Positions 1,592 to 64,000 of a stretch of 64,000 nucleotides of DNA are shown piece by piece. Location of the stretch: the NCBI RefSeq assembly GCF_041886205.1, contig NZ_CP169029.1; one strand, given 5' to 3'. The stretch is from Escherichia coli. Lineage in GTDB: Bacteria; Pseudomonadota; Gammaproteobacteria; Enterobacterales; Enterobacteriaceae. How positions within the stretch are numbered: the stretch's first letter is position 1; each line of letters opens with the position of its first letter. Both the position numbers and the translations under genes were made by a program. The notes under the pieces are model-generated. The model saw only the letters and a program-made list of their open reading frames with translations. It was not told the DNA's origin and ran no database searches.

Positions 1592-2905
<1,314 letters not shown>

Positions 2906-3288
2906 TCCTGTTCTTTAACTCTTAACGTAAAAACCGCTTCGGCGGCAATGCCGATCAGTTAAGGAGCGGTTGACTGATCCTTAAACTGCGGCACTATAAC
3001 GGCTTCCACTCCAGGGAGCCGTTTTCTTATGCCACTTCTCAATGATCTGTTCGCCGCATGAGCCTCAGCGCTGATGGCGAGGTCGGAGAAAAGGTCCTGT
3101 CGCGCAATGCCATTACTCAGGCCCGGCGACGGGTGGCACCGCGCCTCTGGAATGGCTCTTTCATCAGACGGCACAGATCCGGGGAGCAGAACATTACCCC
3201 AAAGATAGCTGGCGTGTATTACAGCCCTTTGTCGTGCACGGGGGACACCGGATAGCAGGAAGTCTGGGGTATATTGCTGGCCTACAAT

Positions 3289-3370
3289 CTGATACGACGG
3301 AAAGCTACAAAGGCAGTAGAAAAGCATAAAAGAGTGCTGAAAGAAATCAGCTTCAAATTTGCCGTATCAG
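3289..3370 (+). repeat. Imperfect direct repeat, copy A (~80 bp) flanking accessory PTS/porin module
   Basis: ctgatacgacggaaagctacaaaggcagtagaaaagcataaaagagtgctgaaagaaatcagcttcaaatttgccgtatcag is repeated with roughly 85% identity at 9475..9554 in the same orientation. Confidence 0.8.
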
Positions 3371-3566
3371 AAAGTAGATGAAATCAGACATTATCTAATA
3401 TTATATTTTGGTTAAAATAGATATCAGAATTTAGCTATCCAATCGGTTTAATAAAATGAACCCGATTAAGATTGCTATGTGCTGAATGTATTTCATTTAA
3501 ATATAAATTAAAAAGTCGCCAGCAAGCTTATTTAACAGAACCGATAAAATAAAAAATGATATAAAT

Positions 3567-4613
3567 TTAGAACCAAAATTCAAGACCGGCGCGGTAAAAA
3601 TAGTCATTACTTTCTGAATTATAGGCGTCAGTTCGACCAATACGGACATAAGGGAGAAAACCATTTTCCATATTCATCATTAACTGTAAAGACGTCACTT
3701 TATCGGCGGTGTCTTTCTGGGTGACATTGTCTATTTTATAATCATTATTTTTGGCATACCCTAGCTTAGCACCATAGATACCATGCCAGTATTCGCCAAT
3801 TAAACTATAGGCATCCTGGGTGCTTTTAACATGGGTAATAAGGTCGGTCGTTTGACCATTTTTATAGCCCGCGTAAAACCTCAGACCAAGATCTGTAATG
3901 GGTATCTCGAGGCCCAAAACATAACCAGAGGCATCCTCCAGATTGTCATTTAACGTGTCATCGGTCGGTTGAACTGATTTGTTGCGAGTTTCTTCATAAG
4001 CAACATGTACTTTCACTGTAGAGAACGGCGTCCAGGTTACCCGTGAGCTGTAAGTCGTCGATCCAGAAACCGTAGAATCATCGCGATTAACGCTGAGAAC
4101 CACATCAAATCCCCCATAGTCTTTTGTTGCAAGGCTACCGTCATAGCGCACCATATTCGACATGCGATTGCTTTGATGCCAATGAACGTCACCTCCCCAG
4201 TCAAAAACGCGACCGAGACCGGGGTTGGTATAAGGCCAGTCAATGATTTCGTATAACGCCCCCTTCATGCGGCCAAAGCGAAGTTTCCCATACTTACCTT
4301 CAAACCCCACAAAGGTATCAAACTTTCCCAGACCAGAGTCGTTGGCCTCATAACCAACATAACCACTTTCAATCTGGAATATAACATTTACACCTTCAGT
4401 TATTTCTTTGTTCCCGCGAAAACCAATATATGATTCGTTATCGAGAGTATAATCATAATTCCTTTCATTGGCCTGAGTGGTAAAAATGGACATGGCTAAT
4501 TTACCATAGATTTCCAGGTTAAAATCTTTTGGCCCTCCCACTTGCATTGCATTTACTATTGTAGGCATAGTCGTAAGCAAAGAAATGCAAATAATATTAC
4601 TTGTTTTATCCAT
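3567..4613 (-). CDS. Putative outer-membrane beta-barrel porin/channel (signal peptide, C-terminal Phe)
   Basis: 348-aa ORF; N-terminal signal peptide ending ...PTIVNA; alternating hydrophobic/aromatic beta-strand pattern throughout; terminal ...GLEFWF typical of OM beta-barrels; AT-rich coding sequence. Confidence 0.7.
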   Translation of the reverse strand: MDKTSNIICISLLTTMPTIVNAMQVGGPKDFNLEIYGKLAMSIFTTQANERNYDYTLDNESYIGFRGNKEITEGVNVIFQIESGYVGYEANDSGLGKFDTFVGFEGKYGKLRFGRMKGALYEIIDWPYTNPGLGRVFDWGGDVHWHQSNRMSNMVRYDGSLATKDYGGFDVVLSVNRDDSTVSGSTTYSSRVTWTPFSTVKVHVAYEETRNKSVQPTDDTLNDNLEDASGYVLGLEIPITDLGLRFYAGYKNGQTTDLITHVKSTQDAYSLIGEYWHGIYGAKLGYAKNNDYKIDNVTQKDTADKVTSLQLMMNMENGFLPYVRIGRTDAYNSESNDYFYRAGLEFWF

Positions 4614-4833
4614 AAGTTGCCCCAGTAATTTTATATCCGAAAAGAGTAAAACCCGCCTTCATGGAGGGCTGTATTCATTACGCCATGAAAGGGCGTATTA
4701 AAATCTTTAAAAAGAAGTCTTCTGCCAGTCCTGTGAGATTTAAATCCAAAGGCAATAAGACAGAGCCAAAACCAGTGGATGACCACGCCCATAGAACGTG
4801 GTTTTCAGTTGGCAATAAATATTGAAAATAGAA

Positions 4834-5691
4834 TTATTTAGTTCTATTGATAATGTCCAGTGAAGATATTATTTTCTCCACATTATCTCCCCGATTAATA
4901 AATAATAACGCATTGAATAAAACATCAACCATAAAACTTTGTGCAGCGGTAATCGTTGATGAATCTGACTGATAAGGATTTGACGTCCCACCCGTCAGTA
5001 AGACAACATCAGCGTACTGACTTAATGAGGAATGCTTTAGTTTACTAATAACAATAGTCATCGCCCCTTTCTCTTTCACTCTTCTTAACGCATCGACAAC
5101 ATCGCGCGTTTCACCAGAGTGTGAAATCGCAACCACCACATCCTTTTTCCCAACGTTGTTCGAATTTAAGGTCATGGTATGATTGTCGATCAGAGCATCG
5201 ACGTTTGCCATAATTCTCATGAATCGATATTTGGCATACAGGACGGATATGGCTGACATACCAATGCCGTAGAAATAAACCTGCCCCGCTTTGCTCAGAC
5301 CGTCAGCTGCACGCATTAGGGTCTGTTCCTCTTGCAGGGCAAGCGTTTCATTGATAACAACGTAATTATCATTAGCCAGCTGTTGTGCAATCCCTGTCAT
5401 GGAGTTCGTCTGCTCATCAAGAGAAATCACTTTTGATAACAATGTATCGTCTGTATCTGTTTCCAGGCGAAGAGTCGTCTTTAATTCTGAAAAGCCCTTG
5501 TATCCCAGCTTTTTACAAAACCGAATAATAGACGCCTCACCAACATTCATTGCATCCGCTAATTTTGCAATGCTCATATTGATGAATTGCATACGATTAT
5601 TTTTAATAAACTGGTAAATACGTATTTCAGTCTGGGTCAATTCATTAATTCTGGTGTTAATTAACGTGTTAAAGACGACTCGGGTTTTCAT
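4834..5691 (-). CDS. RpiR-family transcriptional regulator (HTH + SIS domain)
   Basis: 285-aa ORF; N-terminal HTH segment (IAKLADAMNVGEASIIRFCKKLGYKGFSELK) and C-terminal SIS-like region (VVVAISHSGETRDV); last gene of the PTS operon, 7 bp downstream of the IIA gene. Confidence 0.85.
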   Translation of the reverse strand: MKTRVVFNTLINTRINELTQTEIRIYQFIKNNRMQFINMSIAKLADAMNVGEASIIRFCKKLGYKGFSELKTTLRLETDTDDTLLSKVISLDEQTNSMTGIAQQLANDNYVVINETLALQEEQTLMRAADGLSKAGQVYFYGIGMSAISVLYAKYRFMRIMANVDALIDNHTMTLNSNNVGKKDVVVAISHSGETRDVVDALRRVKEKGAMTIVISKLKHSSLSQYADVVLLTGGTSNPYQSDSSTITAAQSFMVDVLFNALLFINRGDNVEKIISSLDIINRTK

Positions 5692-5698
5692 TAAGTAC

Positions 5699-6004
5699 TC
5701 ACTCCATCTTTTTATAAACCTCTATCAATTCTGTCACAAGTTCACGGCAAAGCATACCTGTCATAAGGTGATCTTGGGCGTGAACCATCACCAGAGTGAT
5801 TTGCAGTTTACCTACCCCCTCATCCAGACCAATTAGCCGAGTCTGCACCTCGTGTGCCTGCCTGAAGGCATCGTCAGAAACCTTTAAAGAGGCTTCCGCT
5901 TCAGCAAAGCTCCCCGCTTTGGCGAACCTGAGCGCCTCCATGGCACAACTGCGACCTTCGCCAGCGGCGATAATCAGCGACATCACATCATTTTCATAGC
6001 TCAT
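5699..6004 (-). CDS. PTS EIIA component, lactose/cellobiose family
   Basis: 101-aa ORF with size and helical pattern of the lactose/cellobiose IIA family; conserved His region (VMVHAQDHLM). Confidence 0.85.
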   Translation of the reverse strand: MSYENDVMSLIIAAGEGRSCAMEALRFAKAGSFAEAEASLKVSDDAFRQAHEVQTRLIGLDEGVGKLQITLVMVHAQDHLMTGMLCRELVTELIEVYKKME

Positions 6005-6040
6005 TTAAATTATCTCGTGTTAGGTATCGGTGGATACGAT

Positions 6041-6352
6041 TCATTTTGATGAAATCAGATCAACGGCCTGTTGATACACTTTTTCACCATTCATAGCCCC
6101 ATACAGTAACGGGCTGATGGCCTCTGATTTCTTGCCATTCATTTCTGCCAGCTTTTGTATTTCCGTCAGCTTAAATCGAATCTGAGGCGCAACCAGTACG
6201 ACGTCATAATTCGCGATGACATCTTTCAGAACATCAACGCCGTGAGCTTCAATAACTGATTCATGGCCGACGGAATTGGCGTAATCTTTCATTCGCTTCA
6301 TTAACATTGAGGTAGACATTCCCGCAGCGCACACTAAAAGTATCTTATTCAT
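6041..6352 (-). CDS. PTS EIIB component, lactose/cellobiose family
   Basis: 103-aa ORF starting MNKILLVCAAGMSTSMLMK; the phospho-Cys loop CAAGMSTS is diagnostic of cellobiose-type IIB. Confidence 0.9.
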   Translation of the reverse strand: MNKILLVCAAGMSTSMLMKRMKDYANSVGHESVIEAHGVDVLKDVIANYDVVLVAPQIRFKLTEIQKLAEMNGKKSEAISPLLYGAMNGEKVYQQAVDLISSK

Positions 6353-6376
6353 AGCAATTACCCGTCATTGATAAAA

Positions 6377-7921
6377 TTATGTCACAGTAATATGTAAACC
6401 ACTCATCCGCCGGAAAGGGGCGGAAATGGAAGTGATCGTAGGACTGCGGCCGTTAAAGCTATAGTGAATATTTTCCATCCAGGTCTTTTCGATTTCAGAC
6501 TTAATTTTATCGAACACCATCGTTTCCTTTTCTTCAAATGAGGAATAGCTCTGGCCAATTGAAGGTAAATATTCAAACTGAACAGGGAAGCGGACTTCGG
6601 TCTGGTAAGCCCAGTCCGATACCAGCCTTTCTTTTAAGAAACGTTCGATAGCGTCAGCATTATCGCCCATGGTCGAAAAGACAAGGTTCGCTATCCCCGT
6701 ACCTAACGAATTACACGTTGTGTTCCAGCCTGCGTAGCCCTTAATGGTATCGAGTGCGCCGGCTTTATCCAGCGCCCGAATAAGTTCAGTTTCACCGCCG
6801 TTTGACATCGCCACATCGATGACTACCACTGACACCTGCAAAGCTCTGCTGGCAATTTCTTTTGCATAGGTCACCAGGTCACGATGGGTGTAGTAAGTGA
6901 TATTTTTATACTTTGGCTTCCGCACACCGGTATGCAGGTTATAGCCATAGCTAATATCAAAAGCCTCCTGCATTATCTCACCGCACCCATTGATCGCTAA
7001 AACAGGCAGCGAGGCATCATTATCGACCAACGTTATACCCGACGCGGCTGCATACGAACGCAGTGAGTGTATAAAAGGACGATCTTCATAATTCGGGATA
7101 TAGGTTTTAAACAGTTCGTTTGAATAGAGTGTGGTGGCTATAAAATCCTTTTTCCTCATCGACAAATAGGCTTTGGTCAACAATGTGCATCCAGACTCAT
7201 CGGTGCCAGGATGAACAAACACCCGGTCCTGTACCCCAAGCAGGGATATCTTTTCGTAAATGCGTTCCTGATCCTGCATCGTAAAACCAAATTCCGCGGT
7301 ATCGTCCAGCGGGATTATCAGCTGATCGATAATCTTTTCATCAACGAGTTCTATCGCATTCTCAATGAGCTGCAGATTTTTACTTCTGCGCGACAGCCAG
7401 TCGTCAAAGGAAGCAGAATTAATAGCGGAACGATGTGCAAGCAGATGCGCTTTTTCGTCTTCGCTCAGCCCGACACGCTTCTCTTTGTCAGACAGATAAC
7501 CAACCTGAAAAATTGAATGCCCGATATGTGCATAGTAATCCGGTTCTTCTTCACTGGAATTATATTTTGGCGTACGTAGCACCAGTGAAGATGCATAAAT
7601 CTTAAGTGCCGGATAACTTTCTTTCAGTGTTTTAATTTTATTTAACCTTGCTATAAGCTCAGTTAATTCCATCTGATGAATACGCGCGGGAAAAAGTCCA
7701 CCGTAGAGATACATATCCAGGCTGATAATTAACGCATCGGAATCGGCACAGTGGCTGTTTATAAAGTCATCTACAGCCTGATGTGAAGCTGGTTGTTTTT
7801 TGTATCCTAAAATCTCTTTCGCTGGCATTTTTAACGAAATATTGCTGTCCATCGAGGCCAGAGAAATCAGGAAGTCATAGTTATAAGGTCGGATATCCAG
7901 AGGTATGCTAATTATATTCAT
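6377..7921 (-). CDS. Uncharacterised 514-aa protein embedded in PTS operon (possibly DUF4127-like)
   Basis: Long intact AT-rich ORF, tightly spaced between the IIC and IIB genes (15 bp and 24 bp gaps); no signal peptide or TM segments evident; no catalytic motif I can assign by eye. The family guess comes from memory of size and PTS context only. Confidence 0.6.
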   Translation of the reverse strand: MNIISIPLDIRPYNYDFLISLASMDSNISLKMPAKEILGYKKQPASHQAVDDFINSHCADSDALIISLDMYLYGGLFPARIHQMELTELIARLNKIKTLKESYPALKIYASSLVLRTPKYNSSEEEPDYYAHIGHSIFQVGYLSDKEKRVGLSEDEKAHLLAHRSAINSASFDDWLSRRSKNLQLIENAIELVDEKIIDQLIIPLDDTAEFGFTMQDQERIYEKISLLGVQDRVFVHPGTDESGCTLLTKAYLSMRKKDFIATTLYSNELFKTYIPNYEDRPFIHSLRSYAAASGITLVDNDASLPVLAINGCGEIMQEAFDISYGYNLHTGVRKPKYKNITYYTHRDLVTYAKEIASRALQVSVVVIDVAMSNGGETELIRALDKAGALDTIKGYAGWNTTCNSLGTGIANLVFSTMGDNADAIERFLKERLVSDWAYQTEVRFPVQFEYLPSIGQSYSSFEEKETMVFDKIKSEIEKTWMENIHYSFNGRSPTITSISAPFRRMSGLHITVT

Positions 7922-7936
7922 GTGCTCTTTCTCTGA

Positions 7937-9259
7937 TTATTTCTGTTTATTCATGGCGAAAACAAATGGCAGATAAATGATAACCGACAAGCTGATTAAA
8001 AATACGGATAGCACCGCAGCTCTCCAGTCTCCTCCCGTAGCCAGGAAGGCGCTAATCACTGGTGGCGTTGTCCATGGCACAAGAACATATGTATGGTTAA
8101 TCAAATCCATTGCCGTCGCGGCATAAGCAATCACGATGCTGATAATCGGAGTGAATAAAAATGGTACAATTAGCACCGGGTTGAACATAATTGGCAAACC
8201 AAAAATGATGGGTTCATTTATGTTGAACAACATCCCAGGAGTTGCCAGACGAGTAATCGCACGATGCTCTGATTTTTTCGCTGCAATCCATAAAGCAATC
8301 AGTAAGCCGATTGTCTGGCCTCCGCCGCCCATAAATCCAAAGGCATCGATGAACGGTTTTGTGACGATATGTGGGATTTCAAGGCCAGCCTTAAACGCGG
8401 CAGTATTTTCCTGAATCGCCACCAGCAGGGTTGTCTCAGTAATAGGGTACATGATACTGGCACCATGGATCCCTGCCCACCATAATCCGTTTTGCGTCAA
8501 AAGTAGTCCTATTACTCCGCTCAGACCCTGTAAAATATTTTGCAGCGGAGCCTGAATCATCAGAGTAACGATTTCATGTATGTTTTTGTTGAAGAGACTG
8601 CTTAACGACCATGCAAAGAGACTCAGCAAGGTTAACACCAGGATCATCGGTATTAATACGTTAAAGCTCCTTGATACGGAGGGGGGAACTGAATCAGATA
8701 AAGTAATTTTCAATTTAGATGAGGCCGAAACTTTGCGAAAAAGTTCAGTGGAAATAAGCGCCACAAATATGCCTACAAACATACCAGACGCGCCACTTTC
8801 ATTGCCGCTGATTAGCCCCGAAACCTGAAAAACCTCGCCCGTCGGCGCTGTAACGGGAATGGTGACCGGGAACAAAACAAATAAACATGCCAGTGAGAAG
8901 ATGGCATACGTTATCCCATCCTCGCCATAGCTGTTGGCTAATCGATATGAAATCATCACCGTTGCCAGAAAGGCGAGAATATTCAGCGTTCCGTTATAGA
9001 CGCGGATGCCAATTTCCTGTAGGTGGCGAACCCATGCGCCTTCCAGCCCCAGAAAACCGACTAAACCGGATTCGCCGTTGAGCAATACATTATTTATTAA
9101 TATAAATAGAGACGCAGCAATAATTAAAGGCATGAGCGCGACAAATGATTCCCTCACTGCCGAAAGATGTCGCTGTCCTGAAAAATCGCCCGCCCAATTA
9201 GAGATCTTGTCAATGAAAACAAGACCACTCCCACTTTTAATTTTATTGATGAAATTCAT
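7937..9259 (-). CDS. PTS EIIC permease, lactose/cellobiose family
   Basis: 440-aa polytopic membrane protein with multiple hydrophobic segments; first gene of the operon IIC-unknown-IIB-IIA-RpiR. Confidence 0.85.
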   Translation of the reverse strand: MNFINKIKSGSGLVFIDKISNWAGDFSGQRHLSAVRESFVALMPLIIAASLFILINNVLLNGESGLVGFLGLEGAWVRHLQEIGIRVYNGTLNILAFLATVMISYRLANSYGEDGITYAIFSLACLFVLFPVTIPVTAPTGEVFQVSGLISGNESGASGMFVGIFVALISTELFRKVSASSKLKITLSDSVPPSVSRSFNVLIPMILVLTLLSLFAWSLSSLFNKNIHEIVTLMIQAPLQNILQGLSGVIGLLLTQNGLWWAGIHGASIMYPITETTLLVAIQENTAAFKAGLEIPHIVTKPFIDAFGFMGGGGQTIGLLIALWIAAKKSEHRAITRLATPGMLFNINEPIIFGLPIMFNPVLIVPFLFTPIISIVIAYAATAMDLINHTYVLVPWTTPPVISAFLATGGDWRAAVLSVFLISLSVIIYLPFVFAMNKQK

Positions 9260-9474
9260 ATAAGAAAATCTCGCGCCCTAGATATTAGTTTCAGCGTATT
9301 TTATTTATCCCCTTTCGTAATACTGTTAGCTTTGTCACAAAACTCCAAAAATTCCAACTAAAATGATACTAAATGGAGTTTTTTTGGTTTTGTAATCTAC
9401 CGTTCTGGAGTCTGGTATTAACAATAAAAGCGGCTTTCGCAGGAGGATAAATCATCAGCATTTGTCCAGACAAG

Positions 9475-9554
9475 CTGATACGACGGGAAGCTATAAAGGT
9501 ACAGAAAAGCATAAAAGAGCGCCGTTAGAAATCAGCTTTAAATTTGCCTTTCAG
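9475..9554 (+). repeat. Imperfect direct repeat, copy B (partner of 3289..3370)
   Basis: ctgatacgacgggaagctataaaggtacagaaaagcataaaagagcgccgttagaaatcagctttaaatttgcctttcag; same orientation as copy A. Confidence 0.8.
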
Positions 9555-9759
9555 TTTATACAACAGAAATGATAGTGCCGGGAAACACGTCGTCGCCGGG
9601 AATGCTCCCAAGAGACTGGAGTATCGGAGGGGAAACCTGGAAGCGCTGTTCATAACAAAACGCCCCGACCGTCAAGGCCGCGGGTGGTGAAGATATCAAA
9701 ACGTCCATGCTGTTCCGCTTAAGTGAACGGCATTGCGCTGCAGTGGGTTTTTTATGCCT

Positions 9760-10584
9760 TCAAAGTAGTAGCGGTAGGGTCGCACTCGCCGTTTGCTGGC
9801 TCACATCGTTGTACTTTTCATCCAGTCCAAACAGCGACGTGGTGAGCAGTTCCACCAACAGCATGACACCAACCTTGGCGTTTAGCGCGCCAGCACTCAA
9901 CGGACCTTCTGGTTTGGCTGCGACCAGTTGAATATCACTCAGCGAAGCCAGCGGACTATGCGGTGTATTACTCAGCGCCAGTATGCGTACACCTTGCTTA
10001 CGCGCCAGTTTAACCACATGCAGCAGATCGCGTGTGGAGCCTGAACTGGATATTGCCACTACCAGCGTGTCTTTGCTTAGCGTTGTAGCGTTCATAGCAG
10101 CACGGTGCATGTCGCTGAACAATTGCGCGGGTTTGCCGAGGCGCAGGAGTTTGTAATGTAAATACTCTCCCAGAATAGCGCTGGCCGCTACGCCATAAAT
10201 TTGTACCGACTGAGCCTGATGCAGCGCCAGAGCGGCTGCTTCCAGTAATGTTCTGTCGAGTAATTTTGCCGTGTCCTGCAGCGCTTGCACGGATTCATTG
10301 ACGACATTGTCAATCTCATCACCGCTGCGCTCTACCAGCTCTCCTTGCCGGAGATCGAGTGCCAGCGCCATCTTAAATTCGTTATAGCCCTTACACCCCA
10401 GCGTACGGCACAGACGTGTGACGCTCGCCTCGCTGGTGTCGCTTTCACGCGCCAGTTCGGTAATCGTCAGGTAGACCACTCTTGCCGGATCGCTAAGCAC
10501 AAACTCTCCCAGCTTCTGTTGAGTTCGACTATATCCATCAACGCTCTGGCGCAATCTCAGCAGTAGGTTTTCATTTTCTGACAT
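9760..10584 (-). CDS. RpiR/MurR-like transcriptional regulator (HTH + SIS)
   Basis: 274-aa ORF; N-terminal HTH (ITELARESDTSEASVTRLCRTLGCKGYNEFK), SIS-type C-terminal domain (LVVAISSSGSTRDL); divergent from the EIICB gene. Confidence 0.85.
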   Translation of the reverse strand: MSENENLLLRLRQSVDGYSRTQQKLGEFVLSDPARVVYLTITELARESDTSEASVTRLCRTLGCKGYNEFKMALALDLRQGELVERSGDEIDNVVNESVQALQDTAKLLDRTLLEAAALALHQAQSVQIYGVAASAILGEYLHYKLLRLGKPAQLFSDMHRAAMNATTLSKDTLVVAISSSGSTRDLLHVVKLARKQGVRILALSNTPHSPLASLSDIQLVAAKPEGPLSAGALNAKVGVMLLVELLTTSLFGLDEKYNDVSQQTASATLPLLL

Positions 10585-10710
10585 GCAAAATCCTTAATGC
10601 GTTTCTCTGCCGATAGTGTGGCGGAAAGTAGGGGAGAGATGCTAGTCATTTTAAAAAAGTATGATCGGTGCCCTGGTTTTTGATGGTAATTTTCATTTTT
10701 ATAATTAGTT

Positions 10711-12306
10711 GTGGTAAAAATTTTCATCAAAGAGCGGGGAGATGAAAAAATGATGCAAATATTTAGCGGCGCTTCGTCAGGCGCATGGTTTGAAAAAGCG
10801 CAGCGGTTCGGCAAATCGTTCATGCTGCCGATTGCGGTATTGCCCGCAGCGGGGTTGTTGTTGGGGATTGGTGGGGCTCTGTCGAATCCCAATACGCTGA
10901 CGGCCTACCCATTCTTGAATGTCGACTGGCTGCAGGCAATTTTCACGATCATGACCAGCGCAGGTTCTATCGTGTTTGCCAACCTGTCGGTGCTTTTTGC
11001 GGTTGGTGTTGCCGTGGGACTGGCGAAAACGGATAAAGGCACGGCGGGCCTTGCGGCATTGCTGGCTTTTCTGGTGATGAATGCCACCATCAATGCTTTG
11101 TTAACGCTCAACGGAACGTTGGCGCACGAAAATCCAGGTGCTGTGGGCCAAGGGATGACGCTGGGCATTCAGACGCTGGAAACGGGCGTTTTTGGCGGGG
11201 TCGTGATTGGTCTGGTCACCTGCGCACTGCATAACCGTTTCAATAAAGTCTCACTCCCTCAGTTTCTTGGCTTTTTCAGTGGTTCGCGTTTTGTACCGAT
11301 TATCAGTTCGCTTGCCGCGATTGTAGTGGGGGTGATCATGACGGTGGTATGGCCGCATTTCCAGAAGCTCATTTTTGGACTGGGCGGTCTGGTGGATGCG
11401 ACGGGCTATCTGGGGACGCTACTGTATGGTTTCATTCTGCGTATGCTTGGCCCACTGGGTTTACACCATATCTTTTATTTGCCGTTCTGGACAACAGCGC
11501 TGGGAGGGAGCGAAATCGTCAACGGTCAACTGGTCGAAGGCACCCAGCGTATTTTCTTTGCCCAACTTGCCGATCCGAATACGCAGCAGTTTTATGCCGG
11601 TACCTCGCGCTTTATGTCCGGGCGCTTTATCACCATGATGTTTGGCCTGCTTGGCGCATGCCTCGCGATGTACCACACGGCAAAACCGGAGAAGAGAAAG
11701 CTTGTCGCCGGACTGCTGTTGTCGGCGGCCCTGACTTCTTTCCTGACGGGCATCACTGAGCCTATTGAGTTCTCCTTCCTGTTTGTGGCTCCGGTGTTAT
11801 ATGTCATTCACGCCTTCTTCGATGGTCTGGCGTTTATGATGGCGCATATTTTACATATCACTATTGGGCAAACCTTTTCGGGTGGACTGATCGATTTCCT
11901 CCTCTTCGGCGTGCTACAGGGGGAAGCGAAAACCAACTGGATGTACGTCCCCTTGGTTGGGGTTCCGTGGTTCTTTCTTTACTACTTCACCTTCCGTTAT
12001 TTGATTAACCGTTTTAACTGGCTGACGCCCGGGCGCGAGAACACAGCCCAGGTGGAGTCCGGTCTGCCTCAGAGCGAACGCGCAGCGGCAGTCATCGCCG
12101 GACTGGGAGGCAAAGAGAATCTGGAAGAGGTGGACTGTTGCGCCACACGCTTACGCGTGACGGTGAAAGAGAGCAGCAAGGTAGATGAAGCTGCGCTGAA
12201 AGCGACCGGAGCGCGTGGCGTAATTATTCGCGGCAACGGTGTTCAGGTGATTTATGGCCCGCATGTCACCATAATTAAAAATGAAGTCGAAGAGATCTTA
12301 TCATGA
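10711..12306 (+). CDS. PTS EIICB component, glucose/N-acetylglucosamine superfamily
   Basis: 531-aa ORF; N-terminal IIC membrane domain, C-terminal IIB domain with the phospho-Cys motif ([11 protein letters not shown]). The start may instead be an internal Met at about 10750 (MMQIFSG...). Stop overlaps the next gene's start (ATGA). Confidence 0.85.
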
Positions 12307-12995
12307 TGAAAACTGTACTGGATTCCCTGAAAGGTAAACTAATTGTCTCCTGCCAGGCGCTGGAAAATGAACCCCTGCACAGCCCGTTTATTATGTCGCG
12401 TATGGCGCTGGCGGCAGCGCAGGGCGGTGCGGCAGGTATCCGTGCTAACAGCGTGGTAGATATTCGCTCGATCAAAGAGAGCGTCTCCCTGCCGGTAATA
12501 GGGATTATCAAGCGTGATTATCCGGGCTGCGAGGTGTTTATTACGGCCACTTTGCAGGAAGTGGATGAGCTGATGACCGTTGAGCCGGAAATTATTGCTC
12601 TGGATGCGACAGCGCGCCCGCGCCCCGGTGGGCAAATGCTGGAAGAGCTGGTTATGCAAATCCGTGTCCGCTATCCGTCCGTACTGCTGATGGCGGATAT
12701 CGCCACCGTCGATGAGGCGGTAACAGCCGAGCGGCTGGGTTTTGACTGCGTGGGCACCACGCTCTATGGCTATACCGCGGACACTGCCGGGCATGTAATG
12801 GTGGATAACGACTGCGGTTTTTTACGTGAGGTGTTGGCGGCGGTCACAATACCGGTCGTGGCGGAAGGTAATATCGATACCCCGGAACGCGCCGCACGTT
12901 GCCTGGCATTAGGCGCGCATACCGTGGTGGTTGGAGGCGCTATCACGCGTCCGCAGCAGATAACGGCACGATTTGTCGCGGCGATCGCCTCGTAA
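12303..12995 (+). CDS. Putative N-acetylmannosamine-6-phosphate 2-epimerase (NanE family)
   Basis: 230-aa ORF ([26 protein letters not shown]...) with NanE-like TIM-barrel pattern; translationally coupled to the EIICB gene. Confidence 0.8.
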
Positions 12996-13066
12996 AGCAT
13001 CGATGGGGCATGATACTTTGGCGGGGATCTGCGATAATTAACGTTTATCCCCATATTGAGAGCGCT

Positions 13067-13738
13067 ATGCAGTACCCGATTAACGAGATGTTCCAGACCC
13101 TGCAAGGTGAGGGTTACTTTACCGGCGTCCCCGCCATTTTTATTCGTTTACAGGGATGCCCGGTTGGCTGTGCCTGGTGCGACACCAAACACACCTGGGA
13201 AAAGCTTGAGGATCGGGAAGTCTCCCTTTTCAGCATTCTGGCGAAGACCAAAGAGAGTGATAAGTGGGGGGCGGCGAGCAGTGAAGACTTGCTGGCTGTC
13301 ATTGGTCGCCAGGGATACACCGCGCGGCATGTGGTGATTACGGGGGGGGAGCCTTGCATTCATGATTTGCTGCCACTGACTGACCTACTCGAAAAGAACG
13401 GTTTTAGCTGCCAGATCGAAACCAGTGGTACTCATGAAGTACGCTGCACACCGAATACCTGGGTTACCGTATCGCCAAAGCTGAACATGCGCGGCGGCTA
13501 TGAAGTGTTGTCACAGGCACTGGAGCGAGCCAACGAAATCAAGCATCCTGTGGGGCGCGTACGCGATATTGAAGCACTGGATGAACTACTGGCAACGCTG
13601 ACCGATGATAAACCGCGAGTCATTGCACTGCAGCCGATTAGCCAAAAGGATGATGCCACACGATTGTGCATTGAAACCTGTATTGCGCGTAATTGGCGTT
13701 TGTCGATGCAAACACATAAATATTTAAATATTGCCTAA
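13067..13738 (+). CDS. queE: 7-carboxy-7-deazaguanine synthase
   Basis: Start taken at the internal ATG 13067 of ORF 12899..13738 (MQYPINEMFQTLQGEGYFTGVPAIFIRLQGCPVGCAWCDTKHTW), giving a 223-aa radical-SAM protein with CxxxCxxC-type cluster motif. Confidence 0.93.
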   Translation: MQYPINEMFQTLQGEGYFTGVPAIFIRLQGCPVGCAWCDTKHTWEKLEDREVSLFSILAKTKESDKWGAASSEDLLAVIGRQGYTARHVVITGGEPCIHDLLPLTDLLEKNGFSCQIETSGTHEVRCTPNTWVTVSPKLNMRGGYEVLSQALERANEIKHPVGRVRDIEALDELLATLTDDKPRVIALQPISQKDDATRLCIETCIARNWRLSMQTHKYLNIA

Positions 13739-14077
13739 TTACACATTTATAAGCGTTATAAATGGGTGGAACTTGTAAAGAATTCCACTCATTTGTATTA
13801 TTTGTCGCCCCTGAAAACTCATCCATCTTGCCCATCCCGGACTAATCATTATCATTCTCTACAAATTCTGCGGCGTTAATTTTTCGCTGGAGTGAAAATT
13901 ATTGCGGCGAAGTTTGGTAGATTTTAGTTTGTATAGAGTTATTTTAAATATTTACCTTTTTAATCAAAAGATTAAGTGCTCTTTAACATAATGGATGTGT
14001 TGTTTGTGTGATACTGTAAAGTTGGTAGATTGTGACTGGCTTAAAAAATCATTAATTAATAATAGGTTATGTTTAGA
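13739..14077 (+). promoter_or_regulatory. CRISPR leader (AT-rich) of the queE-adjacent type I-E array
   Basis: ~340-bp AT-rich non-coding segment ending ...cattaattaataataggttatgtttaga immediately before the first repeat; matches my memory of the E. coli I-E leader terminus. Confidence 0.8.
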
Positions 14078-14350
14078 GAGTTCCCCGCGCCAGCGGGGAT
14101 AAACCGTTCGCTGGCAATCCACTCAGGAATTTCGGGAAGAGTTCCCCGCGCCAGCGGGGATAAACCGGGCAGTACCGACATGGACGGTCACCACGAGTTG
14201 AGTTCCCCGCGCCAGCGGGGATAAACCGTGTATAGCGCCAAAATTGACGAAAGACATGTTGAGTTCCCCGCGCCAGCGGGGATAAACCGGTTGTAGCTGA
14301 CAATGTAAATCATGGATTTACGAGTTCCCCGTGCCAGCGGGGATAACCAT
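14078..14350 (+). CRISPR. Type I-E CRISPR array: 5 repeats (last degenerate), 4 spacers of 32 bp
   Basis: 29-bp repeat GAGTTCCCCGCGCCAGCGGGGATAAACCG at 14078, 14139, 14200, 14261; degenerate terminal repeat gagttccccgtgccagcggggataaccat at 14322..14350. Spacers at 14107..14138, 14168..14199, 14229..14260, 14290..14321. Confidence 0.97.
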
Positions 14351-14360
14351 TCAGGTATGT

Positions 14361-14930
14361 TCAGGCCGGGCAGTTTCCCGCCCGGCCTTCCTCACTTACG
14401 CATTCGACCAGCTCTGGATCGAATCCGCATTCCCCATGCATCACTTCATACGATTTTTTCAGTATTACATCATTATGTTTGGTTAGGTCTTTGAAAATGC
14501 CTTTATTCATCGCGTCGTAGCGTTTGGCATTGCTCTCAATCGGTATAAAGATATCTTTCACGCGAACCATTTTGTCGACAGCCGTTGCGTAATCCGGGTA
14601 TAGTCCCAGACCTACCGCCGTATTAATCGCTGCCCCCAGACTTGCACAACCGTTAATGGCGTTACGTCGTGCCGGAAGGTTGAACATGTCGGCAAAAATC
14701 TGCATAAACAGATCGCTGTTCGAACCGCCGCCAGTAATGATCACATGCTTTGCAAAGTGATTCATTTCATTACGCATATTGTCGTAATTGTTCTTCAGCG
14801 TCAGAGCCACGCTTTCCAGTATCGAACGATATATCCATGCGTAACGCGCAAGCGCTGCCTGCAATACCGGCACCAATAATAATAATGTCGCAGTCATCTT
14901 CCGTGTCATACCCCAAATATCCAGACTCAA
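14361..14930 (-). pseudogene. ygcE: 3' remnant of FGGY-family sugar kinase (ygcE-like), N-terminal ~300 codons missing
   Basis: ORF encodes only a C-terminal FGGY-like segment (...HVIITGGGSNSDLFMQIFADMFNLPARR...); a full kinase would be ~490 aa, but queD begins only ~50 bp upstream, so no room for the N-terminal domain. Confidence 0.7.
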
Positions 14931-62879: not shown

Positions 62880-64000
62880 TTTGCCTCCGATGCCAGTTCG
62901 TCAAAGACGTCTTTGCCGAGGGAGCATTCCGGGCAGAGGAAGTTATCCGGAACTTCACTCCACGGCGTTCCTGGCGCAACGTCCTGCATTGGCTCGCCTT
63001 TTGCCGGATCGTAAATCCACTGGCAGACGCTGCACTGCATCCGTGGGCCGAGGTCAGCCGTCGTGGTGGCAGAGGTTTCTTCTTTAACCACCGAATTCAC
63101 CGTGCTCTGCGGCAGCGGCGCGAGCGCCCACTGACGGGCGATTTCGCGACCGTGTTCACGGCATAACTCCAGAGCGTCCTGGTCTGGTCGCCATTTGGCT
63201 TTCAGGCTGAGCGACATTTCGAAACCCGCATCCTGCAGGCGCGTGGAAAGACGATCCACCGCACCGCCGCTCCAGCCGTGAGATCCGAAAGCACTGGCGC
63301 GTTTGTTACGGAAGCGTAATCCGGTCATCTCCTCCACCAGCCCGGCGATTTTCGGCATCATCACGTTATTCATCGTCGAAGTGCCGACCAGCACGCCTTT
63401 TGAGCGGAAGACATTGGTCAGGATTTCGTTTTTATCGCTTCGGGCGACGTTGAAAATTTTCACCGCCACGCGTGGGTCGGTTTCCGCAATTCCCTGGGCG
63501 ATAGCGTCAGCCATCATGCGGGTGTTATTCGACATGGTGTCGTAGAAAATGGTGATTCTGTCTTCCTGATAATCAGCCGCCCATTTCAGGTACAGCTCGA
63601 CAATTTGCGTCGGGTTATCGCGCCATACCACGCCGTGGGAAGTGGCTATCATATCGACTGGTAAGTTAAAGCCCAGGATCTCGGTAATTTTCGGCGTTAC
63701 CAGGCGGCTGAACGGCGTCAGGATATTGGCGTAGTAACGTTGGCACTGCTCGAAAAGCTCCGTCTGATCCACTTCATCGTTGAACAGATGCTCGTCGCAG
63801 TAGTGCTGACCGAAAGCATCGTTACTGAACAGCACCGCGTCGCCTGTCAGGTAAGTCATCATGCTGTCCGGCCAGTGCAGCATTGGTGTTTCGACAAAAA
63901 TGAGCTGTTTGCCGTTGCCGATATCCAGCGTGTCGCCAGTTTTCACCACATTAAAATTCCACTCCGGATGATGGTGATGACCATTTATCGAGTCGATAGC
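62876..64000 (-). CDS. norV: Anaerobic nitric oxide reductase flavorubredoxin, 5'-partial (N-terminus beyond window end)
   Basis: C-terminal flavodoxin and rubredoxin domains ([10 protein letters not shown]...CPECSLGKD); frame open to position 64000, so the start lies outside the window. Confidence 0.93.

Follow-up and report, generated by a model that had tools for sequence, protein, structure and literature searches.

The 64,000-nucleotide stretch of the Escherichia coli contig NZ_CP169029.1 (assembly GCF_041886205.1) analysed here, in the following called the window, contains a three-gene module which is probably a self-contained operon for N-acetylmannosamine (ManNAc): the module would import ManNAc by a phosphotransferase system (PTS) and then epimerise it to N-acetylglucosamine-6-phosphate (GlcNAc-6P). 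The module comprises a gene for an RpiR/SIS regulator (9760..10584, minus strand, 274 aa), a divergent control region of 165 bp (10585..10749), a gene for a PTS permease of the glucose/N-acetylglucosamine (GlcNAc)/maltose branch consisting of PTS_EIIC and PTS_EIIB domains (EIICB; 10750..12306, plus strand, 518 aa) and a gene for NanE, a ManNAc-6-phosphate (ManNAc-6P) 2-epimerase (12303 or 12306..12995, plus strand, 229-230 aa; the annotated ATG at 12306 yields 229 aa). All three genes lie where they had first been noted and their reading frames are intact. The gene content given in the initial annotation, a divergent RpiR/SIS regulator, an EIICB without EIIA and a NanE, was confirmed by the open reading frames (ORFs) and by the Pfam and NCBIfam searches.

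NanE scored far above the cutoffs of its family models (Pfam PF04131, 228.1 bits, cutoff 27; NCBIfam NF002231, 310.2 bits, cutoff 189). The closest solved structures are the NanE enzymes of Staphylococcus aureus, Fusobacterium nucleatum and Clostridium perfringens with 245-260 bits, the highest value being that of S. aureus (260). The Salmonella NanE reached 136 bits, and the identity to the housekeeping NanE of E. coli K-12 is only 38%. The name nanE2 used in the literature was rejected for the window gene, as it denotes Salmonella STM1129 (PDB 3IGS), a distant paralogue with 132 bits. The active site of S. aureus NanE, known from mutagenesis and crystallography, consists of Q11, R40, K63, D124, E180 and R208, and Tyr149 touches the acetamide methyl group (PMC8482478). 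All equivalents of these active-site residues are kept in the window protein (Q17, R46, K69, D131, E187 and R215), together with the phosphate-binding residues G188, N189, G210 and G211 and with Y156, which corresponds to Tyr149. Furthermore, the NanE signatures x-P-x-I-G-I-x-K-[basic] and V-G-[S/G]-A-x-T-R are represented by LPVIGIIKR and VGGAITR. The protein looks like an active enzyme interconverting ManNAc-6P and GlcNAc-6P, and an epimerase-like protein devoid of the NanE catalytic residues, which had been named beforehand as an outcome speaking against the prediction, was not what the alignment revealed. The nanE gene is connected to the transporter gene by the sequence ATGATGA, in which both candidate NanE starts share bases with the TGA (12304-12306) that ends the EIICB gene. 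The translational coupling assumed for the two genes holds; in orthologues of two phyla they likewise overlap or are separated by 1-20 nt.

The regulator possesses an HTH_6 domain (66.8 bits) and an SIS domain (74.8 bits) according to Pfam. It had been described as MurR-like. Membership in the RpiR family is correct, but the nearest characterised relative is NanR of Vibrio vulnificus and not MurR. Among solved structures, PDB 4IVN (E 1.8e-70, residues 3-273) is by far the closest; two papers identify it as V. vulnificus NanR with ManNAc-6P. The two proteins share 46% identity over the full length, with conserved helix-turn-helix and SIS domains and a conserved RLCR segment for DNA binding. S135, H160, S179 and S181 of the regulator align with S138, H163, S182 and S184 of NanR and with S146, H171, S190 and S192, described in the MurR paper as conserved phosphate binders of MurR. 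The regulator and V. vulnificus NanR have in common a PEGPLxxGA loop that MurR lacks; according to a preprint on pneumococcal NanR, the loops distal to the phosphate differ among RpiR proteins with different ligands. A kinship with MurR was rejected on the basis of the model score (NF012026, 81 bits, cutoff 408) and of 26% identity to K-12 MurR. The regulator is predicted to be a NanR-like, ManNAc-6P-sensing repressor. V. vulnificus NanR is a repressor of the RpiR type which occupies a pair of adjacent sites and is set free by ManNAc-6P; it governs a complete sialic-acid regulon, whereas the regulator of the window sits with EIICB and NanE only.

The control region has a G+C content of 37%, and the promoters of both transcription units are placed here. 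In an alignment of 30 enterobacterial control regions, two blocks shortly upstream of the EIICB gene proved to be conserved; each contains a candidate operator site. Site 1 (10683..10696, ATGGTAATTTTCAT) is an imperfect 14-bp palindrome kept from Citrobacter to Serratia, Rahnella and Pantoea. Site 2 (10714..10727, GTAAAAATTTTCAT) is an imperfect palindrome inside the most conserved block, TGTGGTAAAAATTTTCATCA. The centres of the two sites are 31 bp apart, and both lie within a 23-nt inverted repeat. A pattern covering both sites matched 3 times in 64 kb (0.47 expected); the third match at 63450 is located inside a coding ORF and was taken as chance. V. vulnificus NanR and MurR each bind two adjacent sites, and those of MurR overlap the promoter. 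We propose that 10683-10696 and 10714-10727 together are the operator of the regulator. Good CRP-like TGTGA-N6-TCACA sites are found at the equivalent position in Pantoea and Serratia; in the window there is a degenerate version, TATGATCGGTGCCCTG.

The longest ORF of the EIICB gene starts with a GTG at 10711; the conserved start is the annotated ATG at 10750, which is preceded by a GGAG 8 nt upstream. The protein consists of a PTS_EIIC domain (PF02378, residues 21-359, 305 bits) and a PTS_EIIB domain (PF00367, residues 447-479, 55.7 bits), and no EIIA domain (PF00358) was found in it by the Pfam search. EIICB is 42% identical to PtsG and MalX of E. coli and 36% to NagE. It failed the E. coli PtsG model (NF008301, 423 bits, cutoff 647), the NagE model (TIGR01998, 449 bits, cutoff 553) and both MalX models (TIGR02004, 482 vs 632 bits; NF007509, 481 vs 665 bits). 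A kinship with MurP was rejected, since EIICB reached 35 bits in the MurP model NF007152 (cutoff 516) and MurP aligns with it over 64 residues of the EIIB domain only (BLASTP, 49 bits). In a neighbour-joining tree rooted with MurP, an outgroup on a long branch from all other sequences, the EIICB family forms one tight clade apart from PtsG, NagE, MalX and MurP. EIICB shares domain order and fold family with PtsG, NagE and MalX, yet belongs to a separate clade; a clustering with a characterised transporter of unrelated substrate, the second outcome that had been named as contradicting the prediction, was not observed. The Enterobacterales proteins are nested among those of Firmicutes, which suggests that the transporter moved from Firmicutes to Enterobacterales by an old transfer.

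The catalytic machinery of the transporter is kept in the alignment: C464 corresponds to C421 of PtsG, and the GITEPIE motif and the HH pair are present. In the cryo-electron microscopy structure of PtsG, E202, R203 and K257 contact the hydroxyl groups OH-2 and OH-3 of glucose, and N215 contacts OH-1. In the EIICB clade, the positions of E202, R203, N215 and K257 are occupied by Leu, Arg, Tyr and Met; in the window protein, L230, Y243 and M296 stand at the positions of E202, N215 and K257, and R203, T297 and E298 are kept. A pattern of eleven binding-site residues is invariant in 19 clade members from both phyla. The GlcNAc carrier NagE, too, has a Met at the position of K257. By analogy with PtsG, the pocket appears to be fixed, not of the glucose type and similar to that of an N-acetylhexosamine carrier. 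A glucose specificity of EIICB was rejected as unlikely because both ligands of the glucose OH-2 in PtsG (E202 and K257) are replaced. RefSeq names copies of this protein 'ptsG, glucose-specific' or 'maltose/glucose-specific'; the automatic label 'ptsG, glucose-specific' is probably wrong.

Close homologues of EIICB with 76-99% identity occur in numerous Enterobacterales, for instance in Citrobacter, Lelliottia, Enterobacter, Raoultella, Cronobacter, Pantoea, Serratia, Rahnella, Hafnia, Yersinia pekkanenii and Sodalis. Those of Firmicutes are 69-76% identical and belong to Bacillaceae, Thermoactinomycetaceae, Selenomonadales, Vagococcus and Brochothrix. NanE is encoded within about 4 kb of EIICB in 81 of 84 related loci, and in 79 of them directly downstream, with a gap or an overlap of few to about 30 bases. 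In two Selenomonadales it is located directly upstream, and one of the three loci lacking a nearby NanE is cut by a contig end. The pairing is thus no coincidence. Nearly all Enterobacterales loci have the NanR-like regulator (57-97% identical) in divergent orientation immediately upstream; in the Firmicutes loci, a distant RpiR protein (25-32% identical) is placed downstream. A Pfam census of the 130 neighbouring ORFs in 20 Firmicutes loci detected NanE in 19 loci, RpiR regulators in 16, stand-alone EIIA proteins of the glucose type in 4 and NanA-like proteins in 2. This census shows that the conserved unit consists of transporter, epimerase and regulator, without a lyase or a kinase.

From these data the following route can be drawn. 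EIICB would take up ManNAc and phosphorylate it at C6, the phosphoryl group passing from phosphoenolpyruvate via EI, HPr and a glucose-type EIIA provided in trans (Crr) to Cys464 of the EIIB domain. The supply of a glucose-type EIIA in trans, by Crr in E. coli, would fit with the dedicated EIIA which is occasionally encoded beside the module. The coupled NanE would convert ManNAc-6P to GlcNAc-6P, and NagA and NagB of the host would lead this further to fructose-6-phosphate. The NanR-like RpiR protein would repress the operon, probably via the two conserved AT-rich dyads upstream of the EIICB gene, and ManNAc-6P would free it from them. Such a route would be independent of sialic acid because NanK and NanA are dispensable for it. 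ManNAc is the simplest input, since ManNAc-6P is the only metabolite that links NanE with a NanR-like sensor and the PTS is the remaining component. Uptake and phosphorylation of an N-acetylhexosamine such as ManNAc followed by epimerisation had already been proposed initially; this is still the best reading of the evidence, which supports and sharpens it, and it stays a prediction. We infer the substrate, the use of Crr, the repression, the inducer and the operator sites; on sequence grounds, the substrate prediction is well supported.

Several points weigh against this interpretation. EIICB marginally passed the glucose model TIGR02002, which is of the Gram-positive type (593 bits, cutoff 591.8), and this pass by about one bit accounts for the RefSeq label 'ptsG' of the present copy and 'maltose/glucose-specific' of others. 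The binding-site argument is an analogy with PtsG and not a structure of EIICB itself. RpiR regulators of ManNAc clusters act as activators in Listeria and in pneumococcus, so that repression by the regulator of the window is uncertain. The operator was deduced from conservation only, and a consensus scan of the control region found no clear sigma-70 promoter. The pneumococcal SP1684, a glucose-family EIIBC encoded beside nanE, has a glucosamine phenotype and not a ManNAc phenotype. In the literature searched there was no experiment on the module or a close homologue, an absence which is no proof.

The RefSeq names, the narrow pass of TIGR02002 and the assignment of SP1684 to glucosamine by mutant phenotype would agree with a transporter for glucose, glucosamine or GlcNAc, NanE then being a second epimerase for ManNAc-6P made by NanK during sialic-acid catabolism. 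Given the Met shared with NagE, the residues alone would also agree with GlcNAc. We nevertheless regard such a role, the main alternative, as unlikely. Both OH-2 ligands of PtsG are lost, and the E. coli PtsG, NagE and MalX models were failed by 100-225 bits. The pairing with NanE persists where NanA or NanK-like genes are missing from the neighbourhood, 18 of the 20 Firmicutes loci being devoid of a NanA-like neighbour, and in a three-gene unit NanE and a NanR-like sensor would be pointless beside a transporter for GlcNAc or glucose. Besides, E. coli already has NagE, PtsG and ManXYZ.

The invariant residues L230, Y243 and M296 define a pocket unlike those of PtsG and NagE; they do not thereby identify its ligand. 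A related 2-acylamido sugar of mannose configuration might be the substrate, e.g. N-glycolylmannosamine derived from N-glycolylneuraminic acid (Neu5Gc) or a modified mannosamine, with NanE acting on its 6-phosphate. Soil and plant bacteria (such as Pantoea, Rahnella, Peribacillus and Virgibacillus) commonly possess members of the clade, and for them host sialic acid is an unlikely source. ManNAc is, however, present in bacterial cell-wall polymers and will thus be met by environmental bacteria. Since moreover the active site of NanE is identical to that of ManNAc-6P enzymes, including Y156 at the acetamide methyl group, and the module has no extra enzyme for an unusual acyl group, we consider a substrate of this kind quite improbable compared with ManNAc itself.

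All three genes of the module are under strong purifying selection. Against five other copies, EIICB of the window has a dN/dS of 0.02-0.05, the regulator one of 0.04-0.11 and NanE one of 0.07-0.12. A near-full-length copy of the module (at least 80% of the query) is present in 468 of 5,426 complete E. coli genomes, about 9%, in agreement with the accessory status assumed at the outset. That the module in this E. coli lineage is a hitch-hiking recombination remnant, no longer expressed or useful, could be concluded from its rarity at this locus (the full two-module arrangement described below occurs in 9 complete genomes), from the loss of the regulator and the EIICB N-terminus in the strains VE-T9 and XJ5.2, from the removal of half of the regulator's terminator by the adjoining insertion and from the remnants of insertion sequence (IS) elements flanking the module in every E. 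coli context seen, yet three intact reading frames with complete active sites, the low dN/dS, also towards the closest Citrobacter copy, the conserved control region and the retention in this many genomes make it highly improbable.

The proposed ManNAc operon can be compared with several known systems. The Salmonella cluster STM1127-STM1131 is induced by ManNAc and required for normal growth on it (Chen et al., PNAS 2025, PMC11745405). Like the module, it is accessory, lies apart from nanATEK and encodes a MurR/RpiR-family regulator (a repressor in Salmonella), a transporter and a second NanE. Its transporter is a sodium-solute symporter, so that a kinase is still needed, in contrast to the PTS of the window, and its epimerase STM1129 is distant from the window NanE, which scores almost twice as high with the S. 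aureus enzyme. The Salmonella cluster furthermore contains a NanM-like protein, an outer-membrane channel and the small RNA ManS, whereas the module comprises three genes only. There was no Rfam match at 9000-14500, ManS itself not having been searched for. In Listeria monocytogenes, which cannot use sialic acid, the operon lmo2795-nanE is needed for growth on ManNAc (PMC10667646). It likewise combines an RpiR regulator, PTS components and NanE, but EIIA and EIIBC are separate there, genes for ROK, HAD and oxidoreductase proteins are present in addition, and the regulator acts as an activator. The 80 related loci that the scan returned included none from Listeria; the Listeria PTS proteins were not compared directly.

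In Streptococcus pneumoniae, nanE-nanP (SP1685-SP1684) also places NanE beside a glucose-family EIIBC without EIIA, and an RpiR-type NanR binds ManNAc-6P. The two genes form part of a large sialic-acid locus which also encodes ABC transporters, NanA and NanK and in which NanR is an activator. The phosphate-binding residues and the loop of the window regulator are the same as in V. vulnificus NanR. The resemblance to murR-murQ-murP, noted initially, applies to the layout, since there, too, a divergent RpiR/SIS repressor stands by an EIIBC without EIIA and one sugar-6-phosphate enzyme, with GlcNAc-6P as product. It does not extend to the proteins: in addition to the low identity of the regulator to MurR and the match of MurP to the EIIB domain only, the gene order is different, the etherase has an SIS fold and the epimerase of the window is a TIM barrel, and MurP comes from another EIIC branch. 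In E. coli K-12, ManNAc enters via the ManXYZ PTS and NanE is required. By analogy, the logic of the module matches that of the experimentally shown ManNAc clusters and of this K-12 route, from which it differs by the glucose-family EIICB and by its minimal three-gene form.

The gene order in the window is relA-mazEFG-pyrG-eno, porin, an AT-rich cellobiose-type PTS operon, an IS4 remnant, the module and queE, followed by a CRISPR remnant, a ygcE fragment, queD and cysJIH. In E. coli K-12, only ygcG and yqcG are found between eno and queE. In Citrobacter, the same three genes lie natively between eno and queE, and the eno terminator abuts the regulator gene. Through pyrG-eno the window shares 98.8% identity with K-12. 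Between 9736 and about 13170 it resembles Citrobacter (94% identity to C. werkmanii, 89% to other Citrobacter), and the identity to K-12 returns within the first 50-160 bp of queE, with 58-60 matches of 60 per segment beyond. Sliding 60-bp comparisons with K-12 and C. werkmanii placed the crossover in the 5' end of queE (13110..13230). On this sequence pattern, the module carries a Citrobacter-like tract, which a recombination event inside queE has linked with E. coli sequence on the right side; the left junction near the end of eno is resolved less finely. The donor was Citrobacter-like. A recent transfer from a sequenced Citrobacter was rejected because C. werkmanii, the closest, is only 94% identical in DNA.

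Homology to Citrobacter ends at 2945 and restarts at 9736. The AT-rich operon with the porin and the IS4 remnant make up an insertion of 6.8 kb, which sits precisely at the eno|regulator junction that is contiguous in Citrobacter. The IS4-family transposase gene remnant (9475..9722, plus strand; annotated by RefSeq in the identical stretch of E. coli 6EVA) forms the right end of this insertion and separates the AT-rich operon from the module; it is a boundary marker without a functional role in the module. The G+C content is 53.3% in the module, 52.1% in the whole window and 43.0% in the neighbouring operon (3560-9260), and G+C at third codon positions is 0.55-0.62 in the module against 0.47 in that operon. 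The suggestion that the module is genome-typical in composition and has a history of its own was thus justified on both counts. The Citrobacter counterpart of the junction is a two-way terminator common to eno and the regulator, consisting of an A-run, a hairpin and a T-run. Comparison of the junction sequences showed that the insertion replaced its left half in the window. What is left just past the regulator stop is a hairpin with a T-run (9731..9752), composed of a terminator-like site at 9731-9745 with GGTTTTTTAT behind it.

Apart from about a dozen, the 468 E. coli copies are versions with 87-90% identity. The four of these that were examined are all located elsewhere in the chromosome; of the three studied in detail, two are surrounded by IS elements and the third occupies a tRNA-Phe island adjoining the sgc operon. 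These copies retain the first 15-270 bp of queE and, in view of this leftover 5' end, descend from a locus of the eno-queE type. The island copy belongs to the urine isolate E. coli 21AR0173 (locus 6706-13276). Its module is 89% identical and is accompanied by an integrase in the tRNA-Phe island beside the sgc operon, by a 264-bp 5' fragment of queE and by an IS4-family remnant beside the regulator. The latter is not homologous to the remnant in the window, for which reason a junction shared by the two was rejected; IS4-family elements have hit the terminator side of the regulator at least twice. E. coli VE-T9 (2501-5506) and XJ5.2 carry a 100% identical module with a deletion reaching from just after eno into the EIICB gene. 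The AT-rich operon and the regulator are lost through it together with the first ~55 EIICB codons, NanE and queE being left intact, which looks like module decay in one sublineage. Outside E. coli, the EIICB gene is also found on large plasmids (827-927 kb where the size is shown) of Pantoea sp. SOD02, Enterobacter ludwigii and Pantoea piersonii, and in pSOD02 it was confirmed to have the regulator and NanE as neighbours. Such plasmids are another route of spread of the module. A 702-aa EIIC-EIIB-NanE fusion in an assembly labelled Cichorium endivia, 89% identical to EIICB of the window, is almost certainly a bacterial contamination whose overlapping genes were merged by the gene caller.

Further observations concern the surroundings of the module. 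The AT-rich operon (3560-9260) contains, besides the porin, a second RpiR regulator and EIIA, EIIB and EIIC of the lactose/cellobiose type, with a 514-aa DUF4127 protein between EIIB and EIIC. No terminator-like structure was found in the 71-bp gap between NanE and queE (12996-13066), and the spacing is equally tight in Citrobacter; transcription of the sugar operon may therefore continue into queE. At 13010-13038 there is a promoter-like site whose -10 element is extended. The window is 100% identical to the E. coli strains wlxctx60 and 6EVA in the region examined. The queE gene (13067-13738) is an intact frame of 223 codons in the window and in wlxctx60; its annotation in 6EVA (NZ_CP138428.1) gives a frameshift and a coding span that exceeds this by one base, and a second one-base length difference between 6EVA and the window falls within 2900-13300. 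These differences may be due to sequencing or assembly. A short remnant of a type I-E CRISPR array (14079-14351) lies between queE and the truncated ygcE; its repeats match the K-12 array by only 68-81%, because the spacers differ. Most of ygcE is gone compared to K-12, leaving a fragment of an FGGY kinase gene (about 14361-14930). It is followed directly by queD, and yqcE and the genes beyond (ygcW, ygcU onward), known from K-12, are absent from the gap.

The type of system, consisting of a repressor, a PTS and one enzyme, is conventional, and the operon is real, intact, under selection and accessory. The wider proposal is that the EIICB clade represents the first ManNAc-specific PTS permease of the glucose family and that it is part of a minimal, Firmicutes-derived cassette which, together with NanE and a ManNAc-6P-sensing repressor, confers inducible ManNAc catabolism and may act as a niche factor; we judge the chances of this for and against to be about equal. 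Irrespective of it, there is likely a systematic annotation error, as the transporter is labelled ptsG or maltose/glucose-specific in the copies inspected and its 90%-identity cluster contains more than 1,600 protein sequences. The signature Leu230/Tyr243/Met296 offers a handle on the discrimination of sugars at C2 by EIIC proteins of the glucose family. ManNAc is released by neighbouring gut bacteria which split sialic acid. It was recently shown to drive a dedicated cluster with an effect on gut colonisation by Salmonella (PMC11745405). If the proposal is correct, an inducible ManNAc catabolism independent of sialic acid, NanK and ManXYZ would be at the disposal of Enterobacterales, among them about 9% of E. 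coli and several islands of extraintestinal pathogens. Carrier strains would use ManNAc directly and inducibly, whereas the NanE of K-12 belongs to the nan operon controlled by sialic acid, and in the gut or the urinary tract the cassette could promote colonisation or serve as a niche factor, in parallel to the ManNAc cluster of Salmonella.

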